Positions 27,456 to 39,500 of a stretch of DNA of 64,000 bases are shown one piece after another (position 1 is the first letter of the stretch; each line of letters starts with the position of its first letter). The stretch lies in the NCBI GenBank assembly GCA_964016885.1, contig OZ024745.1, positions 122,016,001 to 122,080,000 on the forward strand, given 5' to 3'. Made by a program: the position numbers and the translations under genes. The notes under the pieces were generated by a model. That model made no database searches and was not told the origin of the DNA. It was given only the letters and a program-made list of their open reading frames with translations. This DNA is from Eledone cirrhosa. Lineage: Eukaryota.

Positions 27456-28064
27456 GTCAGGTCACCACTTGGTGCTGCTGGTAACATGTATCCCAGTACA
27501 ACCTGTCTCATGGTCGGGTCGTTGGCGACTAAACTGGCAACCCCACTAAGGTTTCTTGGTGAGGAGGGTGACTTTGGACATCCTGCAGGACTAAAAACAA
27601 AACCTGTCAAAGGGCAAAGGAGCTCTTAAGAGTCAATGGCCATCCAAAATCACCGGGAGAGATGACCCCTTAGCCTTTGTCAAGGCAGAATTCTAGGAGA
27701 AGGAAAACTCTGATATAACACCTGCAACCCTGATGGTATCCAATGATGTTGACTTGTTCTTCTTTTTGGTAAATATCATCTTGGTTAAGAGAGTGGGACT
27801 GGCTTTGTGCAGTGCCTTTGCTCACTATAAAAGCTTCACGGCACAGGCATTGCTTTGTATCTGGAGATCTCTCTGCACTTGTCATTACATGGTACCATGG
27901 GCCCAGCACTATGTGTCAATAATTGTCACAAGTGTAGTGTTTGTACCAGAGTTTTCAAGTTGCTGGCTGGACTAAAAAGTCACACTCGTTCAGCGTATCG
28001 GTAGGGGTTCTCCTACATGGATATAAAGTAGTGGCCGTACTCGAAAACGAGTTGGCAGCCACCA
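27456..28064 (+). mobile_element. Non-autonomous bipartite RTE-derived element (RTE 5' UTR + RTE 3' end, no ORF)
   Basis: 27651-27853 aligns by eye with RTE 5' UTR 32419-32641. 28032-28064 matches RTE 3' end 36518-36550 at 28/33 nt. Embedded in (TA/TG)n on both sides. Confidence 0.8.
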
Positions 28065-31000
28065 TATATGTATGTATGTATATATATGTATATATATATA
28101 TGTATGTATATGTATATATATATATATGTATATATATGTATGTATGTATATATATGTATGTATGTATATATATGTATGTATGTATATGTATGTATGTATA
28201 TATATGTATGTATGTATATATATGTATGTATATGTATGTATATGTATGTATATATATGTATGTATATATATATATGTATGTATATATATGTATGTATGTA
28301 TATATATGTATGTATGTATATATATGTATGTATGTATGTATATATATATATGTATGTATATGTATGTATGTATATATATGTATGTATGTATATATATATA
28401 TGTATGTATATATATATATGTATGTATATATATATATGTATGTATGTATATATATATATGTATGTATATATATATATGTATGTATATATATATATATGTA
28501 TGTATATATATATATGTATGTATATATATATATGTATATATGTATATATATGTATATATATGTATGTATATATGTGTATGTATATATGTTTATATATATG
28601 TATGTATATGTATGTATATGTATGTATGTATATGTATGTATATATATGTATGTATGTATATGTATGTATATGTATGTATATATGTATATATATGTATGTA
28701 TGTATATGTATGTATGTATATGTATGTATGTATATGTATGTATATATATGTATGTATGTATATGTATGTATATATATGTATATATGTATATATATGTATA
28801 TATGTATGTATATATATATATATGTATAATATATGTATATGTATGTATATATGTATATGTATGTATATATGTATATGTATATATGTATATGTATATATGT
28901 ATATGTATATATGTATATATATGTATATGTATATATATGTATATGTATATATATGTATATGTATATATATGTATATGTATATATATGTATATATATATAT
29001 GTATATATATGTATATGTATATATATGTATATATATATATGTATATATATGTATATGTATATATATATATATATGTATATATATATATGTATATGTATAT
29101 ATATATGTATATGTATATATATATATGTATATGTATATATATATGTATATGTATATATATATGTATGTATATATATATATATATGTATATATATATATGT
29201 ATATGTATATATATATGTATATATATGTATATGTATGTATATGTGTATATGTATATATGTATATATATATATGTGTATATATGTATATATATATATATAT
29301 GTATATATGTATATGTATATATATATATGTATATATGTATATGTATATATATATATGTATATATGTATATGTATATATGTATATGTATATATGTATATGT
29401 ATATATGTATATGTATATATGTATATGTATATATATATATATGTATATATGTATATATGTATATGTATATATGTATATATGTATATGTATATATGTATAT
29501 GTATATATGTATATATATATATGTATATGTATATATGTATATATATGTATATATGTATATGTATATATATGTATATGTATATATATGTATATATGTATAT
29601 ATGTATATGTATATGTATATATATATATGTATATATATATATATATATGTATATATATATATATGTATATGTATGTATATATATATATATGTATATGTAT
29701 GTATATATATATATGTATATGTATGTATATATATATATATATATATATATATGTATATGTATGTATATGTATGTATATGTATGTATATGTATGTATATAT
29801 ATATATATGTATATGTATGTATATGTATGTATATGTATGTATATATATATATATGTATATGTATGTATATGTATGTATATATATATATATGTATATGTAT
29901 GTATATGTATGTATATATATATATATGTATATGTATGTATATGTATGTATATATATATATATGTATATGTATGTATATGTATGTATATATATATATATGT
30001 ATATGTATGTATATGTATGTATATATATATATATGTATATGTATGTATATGTATGTATATATATATATATGTATATGTATGTATATGTATGTATATATAT
30101 ATATATGTATATGTATGTATATGTATGTATATATATATATATGTATATGTATGTATATGTATGTATATATATATATATGTATATGTATGTATATGTATGT
30201 ATATATATATATATGTATATGTATGTATATGTATGTATATATATATATATGTATATGTATGTATATGTATGTATATATATATATATGTATATGTATGTAT
30301 ATGTATGTATATATATATATATGTATATGTATGTATATATATATGTATATATATATATATGTATATGTATGTATATATATATGTATGTATATGTATGTAT
30401 ATGTATGTATATATATATATATGTATATGTATATGTATGTATATATATATATATGTATATGTATGTATATATATATATATATATATGTATATATATATAT
30501 ATATATATGTATATATATATATATGTATATATATATATATATATATATGTATATATATATATATATATGTATATATATATATATGTATATGTATGTATAT
30601 GTATGTATATATATATATATATGTATATGTATGTATATATATATGTATATGTATGTATATATATATATATATGTATATGTATGTATATATATATATATAT
30701 GTATATGTATGTATATATATATATATATGTATATGTATGTATATATATATGTATATGTATGTATATATATATATATATATGTATATGTATATGTATATAT
30801 ATATATATATATATGTATATATATATATATGTATATGTATGTATATATATATATATGTATATGTATGTATGTATATGTATGTATATATATATATGTATAT
30901 ATATATATATATGTATATGTATGTATATATATATATATATATATGTATATGTATGTATATATATATATATATATATATGTATATGTATGTATGTATATAT

Positions 31001-36550: not shown

Positions 36551-39500
36551 TGTATGTATGTATGTATATATATATATGTATATATATATGTATGTATGTA
36601 TATATATGTATGTATGTATATATATATGTATGTATGTATATATATGTATGTATGTATATATATATGTATGTATGTATGTATATATATGTATATATATATG
36701 TATGTATGTATATATATATATGTATATATATATATGTATATATATATATATGTATGTATGTATATATATATATGTATATATGTATGTATATATGTATGTA
36801 TGTATATATATATATGTATGTATGTATATATATATATGTATATATGTATATATATATATGTATATATGTATATATATATGTATGTATATATGTATGTATG
36901 TATATATATATATGTATATATATATATGTATATATGTATATATATATATGTATATATGTATGTATATATGTATATATGTATGTATATATGTATATATACA
37001 CAAAACCAACCATGCATATCTATACTATCTCTAATCCTTCTATTGATTTAGAAAAATAACCAATGATATATTCTATAAAAATGTCAAAACAACAGATGGG
37101 TATCTAATTACTCACTGCCACCAAAAATTCTCACTGCTATCAAAAAACCACTCCCTCAACTATTCTTCTAACAACTTCACCCCTCCCTCCTAATATTCTC
37201 TATAAAAACTAAATAGGTCCTCAGTAAAATAATTCTGATGAAATGACAGTTGATAATAACATTGAAATATTGAATGTCTGCATAACTAATACTTTGTAGA
37301 TAGCAGCTGTTTTCAGGTTATGTAACTGTTATTGAAACACGTGTCAATAAATTCCTTTGAACTAAACTGTATCCATTTAAATCCTTCTGTATATATATAT
37401 ATATGTATATGTATATATGTATATATATATGTATATATATGTATATATATATGTATATGTATATATATATGTATATATATATGTATATATATATATATGT
37501 ATATATATATATATGTATATATATATATGTATATATATATATGTATATATATATATATGTATATATATATATATGTATATGTATATATGTATATATATAT
37601 ATATGTATATGTATATATGTATATATATATATATGTATATATATATATATGTATATGTATATATGTATATATATATATATATGTATATGTATATATATAT
37701 AGGTATGTGTATATGTATATATATATAGGTATGTATATATATATATATATGTATATATATATAGGTATGTATGTATATATATATATGTATATATATATAG
37801 GTATGTATATATATATATATATGTATATATATATATATGTATATATATATAGGTATGTATATATATATATAGGTATGTATATATATATATATGTATATAT
37901 ATATAGGTATGTATATATATATATATGTATATATATATATATATGTATATATATATGTATATATATATAGGTATGTATATATATATATAGGTATGTATAT
38001 ATATATATATGTATATATATATATTATATATATATAGGTATGTATATATATATTGTATATATATATATATATATATTGTGTATATATATATATATATATT
38101 GTGTATATATATATATTGTATATATATATTGTATATATATATATTGTATATATATATATATATATATATATATATTGTATATATATATATATATTGTATA
38201 TATATATATATATATATATTGTGTATATATATATATATATTGTATATATATATATATATATATTGTATATATATATATATATATTGTATATATATATATA
38301 TATATTGTATATATATATATATAATGTATATATATATATATATATTGTATATATATATATATATTGTATATATATATATATATTGTATATATATATATAT
38401 ATTGTATATATATATATATATTGTATATATATATATATTGTATATATATATATATATTGTATATATATATATATATTGTATATATATATATATATTGTAT
38501 ATATATATATATTGTATATATATATATATATTGTATATATATATATATATTGTATATATATATATATATTGTATATATATATATATTGTATATATATATT
38601 ATATATATATATATATATATTGTTATATATATATATATTGTATATATATATATATTGTATATATATATACTATATATATATATATTGTATATATATATAC
38701 AATATATATATATATATTGTATATATATACAATATATATATATATTGTATATATATTGTATATATATATATATATATATTGTATATATATATATATATAT
38801 GTATATATATTTATATATTGTATATATATATATATATATATTGTATATATATATATATATATTGTATATATATATATATATATATTGTATATATATATAT
38901 ATATATATTTGTATATATATTATATATATATTGTATATATATATATATATATATTGTATATATATATATATATATATATTGTATATATATATATATATAT
39001 ATTGTATATATATATATATATATATATTGTATATATATATATATATATATATATTGTATATATATATATATATATTGTATATATATATATATATATATTG
39101 TATATATATATATATATATATATTGTATATATATATTGTATATATATATATTGTATATATATATATATATATATATATATTGTATATATATATATATATA
39201 TATTGTATATATATATATTATATATATATATTAGTATATATATATTATATATATATATATATTGTATATATATATATATATTGTATATATATATATATAT
39301 ATATATTATATATATATATATATATATATTGTATATATATATATATATATTGTATATATATATATATTGTATATATATATATATATATTGTATATATATA
39401 TATTGTATATATATATATTGTATATATATATATATTGTATATATATATATATATATATATATATAGTATATATATTGTATATATATATATTGTATATATA

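Follow-up and report, generated by a model that had tools for sequence, protein, structure and literature searches.

A short non-autonomous RTE family of Eledone cirrhosa that probably uses and extends TA/TATG microsatellite arrays

A 64,000-nucleotide (nt) stretch of the Eledone cirrhosa genome (GenBank assembly GCA_964016885.1, contig OZ024745.1, positions 122,016,001 to 122,080,000 of the forward strand; hereafter the window) carries a 609-bp element that holds no open reading frame (ORF) and is bordered on both sides by TA/TATG arrays. This short element is, almost certainly, a member of a family of bipartite, non-autonomous retrotransposons of the RTE type. In public sequencing data the family is young, very high in copy number and shares one internal join. 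We favour the overall explanation (probability roughly 0.7) that a long interspersed nuclear element (LINE) from an RTE clade with multiple C2H2 fingers underwent an internal deletion and gave rise to this ORF-less family, which both uses and extends TA/TATG arrays. An initial annotation of the window, made from the sequence alone, had given the element 610 bp and had described it, together with an RTE LINE further downstream, as an autonomous/non-autonomous pair that targets or builds microsatellites.

Structure of the short element

Judged by its similarities, the short element is composed of about 400 nt of RTE 5' untranslated region (UTR) followed by about 210 nt of RTE 3' end (Table 1). 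The 5' module matches the 5' UTRs of two of 69 RTE loci, namely L062 (79% over 103 nt, E = 8e-17) and L038 (71% over 136 nt, E = 7e-5), as well as window positions 1449-1281 on the minus strand (73%, E = 3e-22) and a short RTE-like element, L144 (73% over 133 nt). The first 190 nt find no counterpart in the neighbouring LINE or in the DNA upstream of it (163 of 500 shuffles score as high). The UTR block that follows aligns with LINE positions 32415-32641 at 68.6% identity (E = 1e-19), with a score of 112 against a maximum of 30 in 500 dinucleotide shuffles, none of which reaches it. The sharing of 5' UTR sequence proposed in the initial annotation is thereby borne out, and all five motifs that it named fall within the alignment. 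An RTE locus from another data set, L072, is closer still than the neighbouring LINE (76% over 204 nt).

Behind the UTR block lies the end of an RTE ORF. Positions 27876-27998 translate into a peptide 39% identical to LINE residues 1140-1180 (tblastn E = 0.013), and the remnant aligns to positions 1137-1178 of profile A1 (E = 1.3e-8, Z=1). At position 27996 most public contigs have C, which gives a His codon at the last C2H2 ligand position. As the ORF remnant is present from 27855 onwards, the internal join must lie close behind 27853. The initial annotation had overlooked this remnant and had limited the shared 3' part to the terminal 33 nt. Those do match LINE positions 36518-36550 (28/33; 0/500 shuffles reach the score), and the CTCG-4nt-CGAG hairpin folds in both 3' ends. 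Both elements also run at their 3' ends into TATG/TA arrays, as had been described, the tail of the short element being (ATGT/TA)n. Given that 5' module, UTR block and ORF remnant are all RTE-like, the whole short element is RTE-derived. A target-site duplication is indistinguishable, the same simple repeat standing on both sides.

The 5' module seems to be a portable unit. A third element in the window (1281-1468, minus strand) bears this module only and starts just after a (TA)n run. Related contigs in runs X1 (29 contigs) and X4 leave the short element at 27647-27648, where the L062 match also stops. In a different host, L144 contains at about 1160-1660 (minus strand) a further RTE-like element that is short and has no ORF. 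It shares this 5' module, has a 3' hairpin and a (TGG)n tail, and is located in unique DNA.

The head of the element matches RTE 5' UTRs rather than small-RNA genes. No transfer RNA (tRNA) was found in the short element, and Rfam gave no tRNA, 5S or 7SL match at E values up to 10. Over positions 25000-37500, the 150 Rfam matches listed of 230 are microsatellite-driven microRNA noise, with nothing credible on the short or third element and no ribozyme. Self-cleaving 5' ribozymes do occur in some RTEs (PMC5786205; PMC6765202; PMC8501958; here and below, papers cited by accession number are cited for the portions available). A ribozyme like that of hepatitis delta virus at the 5' end, with its nested double pseudoknot (P1, P1.1, P2, P3, P4 and J4/2), was not supported: a strict descriptor matched none of four sequences, and a looser version, adjusted to the short element, matched that element and no other, with 2 of 100 shuffles also fitting. 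P2 and P4 pair in three homologues (97% of cells; 60/500 shuffles), but by eye only two of the six P2 pairs are kept in a fourth homologue. Contig variants that preserve pairing were excluded as support, because most transitions there keep pairing by chance. A twister ribozyme, judged by eye against the consensus, was dropped for want of a P4/L4 core and of an Rfam match.

A high-copy family in public sequencing runs

The short element or part of it is present in 20 public runs, 18 of which have at least half of its words, and contigs from 4 of the 24 listed runs were aligned to it. That it exists in many copies is clear from run X1 alone, with 15,051 contigs: 5298 at 99% identity or above, 5269 at 95-99%, 3045 at 90-95% and 1439 below 90%. 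Their depths add up to about 1.0-1.6 million in each of the 27 inner bins, internal join included, and to somewhat more in the 3' third of the element, as expected from 5' truncation. In run X4 the whole element stands in one 636-nt contig (8 differences, depth 15), which departs from the window copy mainly where most X1 contigs do. Among the rows listed, the window copy differs from the X1 majority at 6 of 609 positions. Summed contig depth is no copy number; single-contig variants in X1 have depths of about 5-20, and from these we roughly estimate a family of tens of thousands of copies or more. Run X1 is possibly the source sample.

The many organism labels of these runs are no evidence of spread across species and probably reflect trace DNA. 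Loose ends at 27866-27869 (X4, X11) and 27633 (X11), at first candidates for the internal junction, lie at GATC or GANT sites, beyond which the sequence reads GATC or ANTC; such ends fit proximity-ligation joints and were discarded. There was no RNA run among the listed holders of the short element (X19 is merely guessed to be RNA), and its exact 3'-end patterns matched nothing in metagenome or viral contigs. One X1 contig, of depth 1885, carries a tandem duplication of the 35-bp stretch 27893-27927, which suggests a small subfamily.

The neighbouring LINE and the multi-finger RTE clade

The LINE downstream of the short element encodes one protein with EN (endonuclease) and RT (reverse transcriptase) motifs in a frame open throughout. 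The APE endonuclease is N-terminal, there is no ORF1, and the best relative found is 63% identical. With its single EN-RT ORF, conserved 5' UTR domain and microsatellite tail, the LINE is assigned by sequence to the RTE clade. Long linkers mark its three C2H2 fingers (residues 1084-1104, 1124-1144 and 1159-1180), whose Pfam matches are all weak and include RNA-binding types; the fingers may therefore bind RNA rather than the target. The true 5' end of the LINE may lie further upstream. Both of its UTRs contain internal (TAT)n and T runs (32673-32719; 36294-36510), and the stretch just upstream, 32190-32367, resembles the LINE 3' UTR in style.

Among 120 listed protein relatives, 50 have three fingers, 11 two, 58 one and one none. 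The multi-finger proteins form one group (support 0.93) when the endonuclease region is analysed with FastTree; the 118 rows of that tree, which has no named RTE references, comprise the window LINE, 58 loci and 59 of these 120 relatives. The group includes the window LINE, L001 and L072, plus two rows scored as one-finger. L001 is a full-length three-finger element in which (TATG)n reaches both contig ends (52 nt each); its 3' plan is that of the short element with a different stem, CATCT-GTAA-AGATG. L072 begins behind 40 nt of (ACAT)n, and a 13-bp inverted repeat lies at the truncation within its contig. No further full multi-finger locus was found in the genomes behind the loci, and no RTE relatives in viral contigs.

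Insertion into TA/TATG arrays

We consider a real preference for existing TA/TATG arrays probable, with incomplete specificity; the suggestion that the family targets or builds microsatellites is thus moderately supported in its first part. One line of evidence is the array upstream of the short element. Two elements of opposite orientation border it, each with its 5' end, and since tails only make repeats at 3' ends, it was not built by a tail. The upstream and downstream arrays have the same TATG polarity. Junctions fall at AT/TA steps, and the same repeat stands at both junctions of the window copy and of L001, and on the 5' side of L072 and of three truncated copies. These three (27662, 27699, 27919) make up a third of the nine listed upstream loose ends; in each, (TATG)n or (TAGA)n precedes a copy truncated at its 5' end. 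The other six are four apparently diverged relatives, one ligation joint and one other DNA (counts on the rows listed; 340 further rows exist). In addition, two head-to-tail joints (28064 to 27456 and 28064 to 27486) suggest insertion into a copy's own tail.

The wider clade points the same way. A TA/TATG/TACA array of 30 nt within 1.5 kb upstream of the ORF is present at both in-clade loci and at 1 of 43 others (Fisher p=0.003); at 20 nt the figures are 2/2 and 2/43 (p=0.006). This comparison covers the 45 loci with at least 500 nt of upstream sequence, two of the 43 others being outside the tree. Downstream, simple repeats above 20 nt are absent from the 450 nt after the stop in all of the 37 metagenome loci that have zero or one finger and whose stop is visible, although 7 of these end within 40 nt of it.

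A number of observations weigh against an array preference. The initial annotation had placed both elements inside microsatellite arrays, which holds for the short element on both sides and fails for the LINE, whose apparent 5' end has a run of 34 T (T34, 32334-32367) before it and no array; a (TA)n(TG)n stretch lies about 150 nt further upstream. The T34 run fits the ordinary RTE signature of a T stretch followed by TA. T-flanked relatives of the short element likewise lack the repeat and fit that signature; they include the 79 contigs that form the largest related group, which begin behind T-rich sequence and count among the four diverged relatives named above. A finger-less RTE fragment (26325-26534; profile A1 positions 994-1044, E = 2.2e-5, Z=1; no Pfam match) occupies the same array as the short element. 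TA-type array makes up 24.5% of the window (17.5% without the arrays touching these elements), so array flanks will be common by chance. The clade comparison was made post hoc, after L001, with two in-clade loci and unmatched hosts, and many of the 43 other loci may fall short of their true 5' ends. L072 is a chimeric contig with bacterial DNA at one end, and in its positions 1-260 a 5'-truncated multi-finger RTE end on the minus strand faces the full 5' end on the plus strand across (ACAT)n. Long 3' arrays also follow L104 (zero fingers) and L108 (one finger), both outside the clade.

Much of this could be accommodated by an ordinary bipartite RTE family that does no targeting, in which a T-stretch/TA preference and tails lengthened by RT slippage meet an array-rich genome. 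The T-rich flanks, the array background and the arrays behind L104 and L108 all fit, as do the published Tn-TA insertion signature (PMC6007223, PMC13295347) and RTE tails as known sources of microsatellites (PMC2887409). Such a family, however, leaves the array between two 5' ends unexplained, as tails cannot make it. The arrays at both ends of L001 and at the 5' end of L072, set against 1 of 43 other loci, and the repeat-free downstream sequence of the 37 metagenome loci also speak against it. We therefore regard this alternative as improbable, though the strongest of those considered, and retain the reading of an RTE-derived family that prefers arrays.

Relation to the neighbouring LINE

In a second alternative, the short element would descend directly from the neighbouring LINE's family and have it as its dedicated partner. 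The two share the terminal 33 nt, hairpin and tail type, the LINE ORF is intact with its catalytic motifs, and the finger remnant places the short element in the LINE's clade. Copies of the short family, however, are mostly 95-100% like the window copy, whereas the LINE reaches only 69% in the UTR and 39% in the finger (amino acids). Nor does it carry the 5' module, and in the UTR the nearer match is L072. For a family so young, these differences make direct parentage unlikely, somewhat more so than the absence of targeting; this LINE is probably a relative, not the parent. Of the pair proposed in the initial annotation, the multi-copy bipartite RTE family is supported, with this LINE as no more than a possible partner.

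Parentage and mobilisation are separate matters, and the LINE could still mobilise the short element without being its parent. The 3' signal common to both and the intact frame speak for this possibility, and we put the chance that its family is a working mobiliser at a little less than even. The blocks shared in the 5' UTR, in which the initial annotation saw possible cis-elements for mobilisation, are not a signal private to this pair. Their core, TCTAGGAGAAGG, is the conserved RTE 5' UTR domain known across animals (PMC5786205) and occurs 112 times in the supplement of that paper, in RTE and Ceph-SINE (short interspersed nuclear element) sequences alike.

Finally, an assembly artefact or a one-off internal deletion can be set aside as extremely improbable, the latter ruled out by the contigs: although the X1 contigs listed include none that covers the element from end to end, which is normal for repeats in contig graphs, the 15,051 contigs with similar depth over the join, the complete X4 contig and the 18 runs with half or more of its words argue against both.

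A proposed mechanism

In the explanation that we favour, an internal deletion in a LINE of the multi-finger clade would have left the 5' UTR and the last ~200 nt, comprising the ORF end, hairpin and tail. From established RTE biology, the kept 5' UTR would be transcribed by RNA polymerase II. An active clade member, from either the neighbouring LINE's family or a closer family not seen here, would supply an EN-RT protein that recognizes the 3' hairpin of the resulting RNA and copies this RNA in trans. Once the endonuclease had nicked the target at a TA/AT step, the (AUGU)n tail of the RNA would pair with the nicked repeat and prime reverse transcription. Most insertions would then land in TA/TATG arrays that already exist, adding repeat units to them, and slippage would lengthen these later. 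By inserting into arrays and adding to them, the family would both use and extend them.

A broader version of this proposal is only tentative. A widespread RTE clade with three fingers may have become a lineage that targets (TATG/CATA)n through its extra fingers and its (AUGU)n tail, with its high-copy passenger seeding or extending TA/TATG arrays. We hold this to be less likely than not to apply in full.

Comparison with known systems

Bipartite RTE LINEs that lack an ORF are known, including Bov-A, RTE-N2_Lch, MAR4_MD and RTESINE2/WALLSI3 (Kojima 2018, PMC5786205), and bipartite RTE derivatives have been called common (PMC7245038). Like the bipartite RTEs of Kojima, the short element joins a 5' UTR to a 3' end, has no small-RNA head, and shares the microsatellite tail and the TCTAGGAGAAGG domain. 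Unlike them, it is longer (609 bp), has arrays on both sides and a parent in a three-finger clade, and its 3' part begins inside the ORF and retains the last C2H2 finger. None of six motifs of the short element was found in the supplement of PMC5786205. The bipartite design is thus ordinary, and the new part is possibly the insertion habit.

Insertion after a T stretch at TA, with a tail repeat related to the first target base, is the RTE signature (Nishiyama and Ohshima 2018, PMC6007223; PMC13295347), and nicking or priming guided by the tail is the published RTE model (PMC6007223). The junctions at AT/TA steps and the T run before the LINE agree with this signature. The published cases, in the portions available, concern unique DNA and short tails. 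Members of Bov-B are described there as rarely flanked by targets resembling their own 3' repeat (PMC13295347), in contrast to the window copy of the short element, which has one repeat on both sides. RTEs are also known to generate microsatellites (Tay et al. 2010, PMC2887409), and a shrimp RTE-BovB has long (AT)n (PMC7878876). As in these elements, 3' ends here run into simple repeats and 3' partial copies are frequent. Unlike them, as described with 3' repeats only, the 5' flanks are repeats too.

Non-LTR (long terminal repeat) elements that target microsatellites include Togen in (TG)n, some HERO families, and members of the Tx1 and R1 clades (PMC4640811). They have the same repeat at both ends, as does the window copy of the short element, and tandem head-to-tail copies, of which the present family shows signs as well. 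They differ in being of the RLE type or of Tx1 or R1, where ours is an RTE with incomplete specificity. In the available portion of that source, most non-LTR families with a specific target are RLE-type, Tx1 or R1 elements, and RTE is not named among them. RTE-1_MD is listed as a random inserter (PMC13708176). Also similar by description is RTE-2_OV of Octopus vulgaris (PMC9115989), which has 1109 amino acids, one finger and a microsatellite 3' UTR. The window LINE resembles it in having a single ORF with EN, RT and C2H2 finger(s) and differs in length (1181 amino acids) and in having three fingers, the comparison resting on the published description. The available part of that account contained no short partner or flank pattern. 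More generally, the literature searched held no report of the short-element family or of a repeat-targeting RTE clade; Repbase, Dfam and an octopus library (PMC13282606) lay outside the search, and annotation there is possible.

Other repeats in the window

The remaining repeats are collected in Table 1. The nine SINE-like pieces belong to one abundant repeat, which may be an octopus OK-type SINE. The 18-bp minisatellite has about 71 copies. The RT-like stretch at 41017-41628 shows a motif that we take to resemble those of Penelope-like elements.

Table 1. Features of the window discussed in the text, with window coordinates
Feature	Position	Strand	Description
Short element	27456-28064	+	609 bp, ORF-less; TA/TATG arrays on both sides
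5' module	27456..27647	+	RTE 5'-terminal UTR segment; starts GTCAGGT immediately after the array
RTE 5' UTR block	27647..27853	+	includes the conserved TCTAGGAGAAGG domain
RTE ORF-end remnant	27855..28004	+	end of finger 2, linker, last C2H2 finger; TAG at 28002-28004
Short element 3' UTR	28005..28064	+	terminal 33 nt (28032-28064); CTCG-AAAA-CGAG hairpin 28040-28051
Upstream array	26535..27457		TA/TATG; between two 5' ends; 105 TATG, 0 TACA on the plus strand
Downstream array	28064..31423		TA/TATG; tail plus target; 419 TATG, 0 TACA on the plus strand
RTE-like LINE 3' end	26325..26534	-	5'-truncated, finger-less, from a different LINE; (TAGA)n(TACA)n tail; inserted in the upstream array
LINE 5' UTR	32368..32747	+	apparent start after T34 (true 5' end may be further up); internal (TAT)n and T run
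LINE ORF	32748..36293	+	single, 1181 amino acids: APE endonuclease, RT, three C-terminal C2H2 fingers
LINE 3' UTR	36294..36550	+	(GT)n, (TAT)n, T run; terminal 33 nt with hairpin 36526-36537
Array behind LINE	36550..36998		(ATGT/TA)n
SINE-like repeat, nine pieces	1603-1669 (-), 8701-8776 (-), 25025-25101, 31975-32060, 50313-50377, 53587-53657, 54008-54082, 54612-54687 (-), 56784-56865
Tandem arrays and minisatellite	14892-15030, 15813-15972, 21156-21304, 22418-24840, 58636-58967, 16842-18100		46-48-bp units (one array with 51 copies), plus an 18-bp minisatellite
Decayed fragments of other LINEs	4902-5932 (-), 7462-7860 (+), 8927-9809		EN or RT similarity
Frame with RT-like stretch	41017-41628	+	between two very long TA arrays

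Implications

If the flank pattern held across the clade, it would describe an RTE lineage with a repeat target, whereas RTEs are usually treated as dispersed. It would add a fourth route to target specificity beside those of RLE, Tx1 and R1 elements, and would make it testable whether the tail repeat or the protein chooses the site. Moreover, it would offer a mechanism for the very long TA/TATG arrays in the microsatellite-rich genomes of marine invertebrates. It would also be relevant to gene insertion tools based on RTEs, which at present integrate at random (PMC13708176), as a single-protein system that is compact and comes with its own short template.

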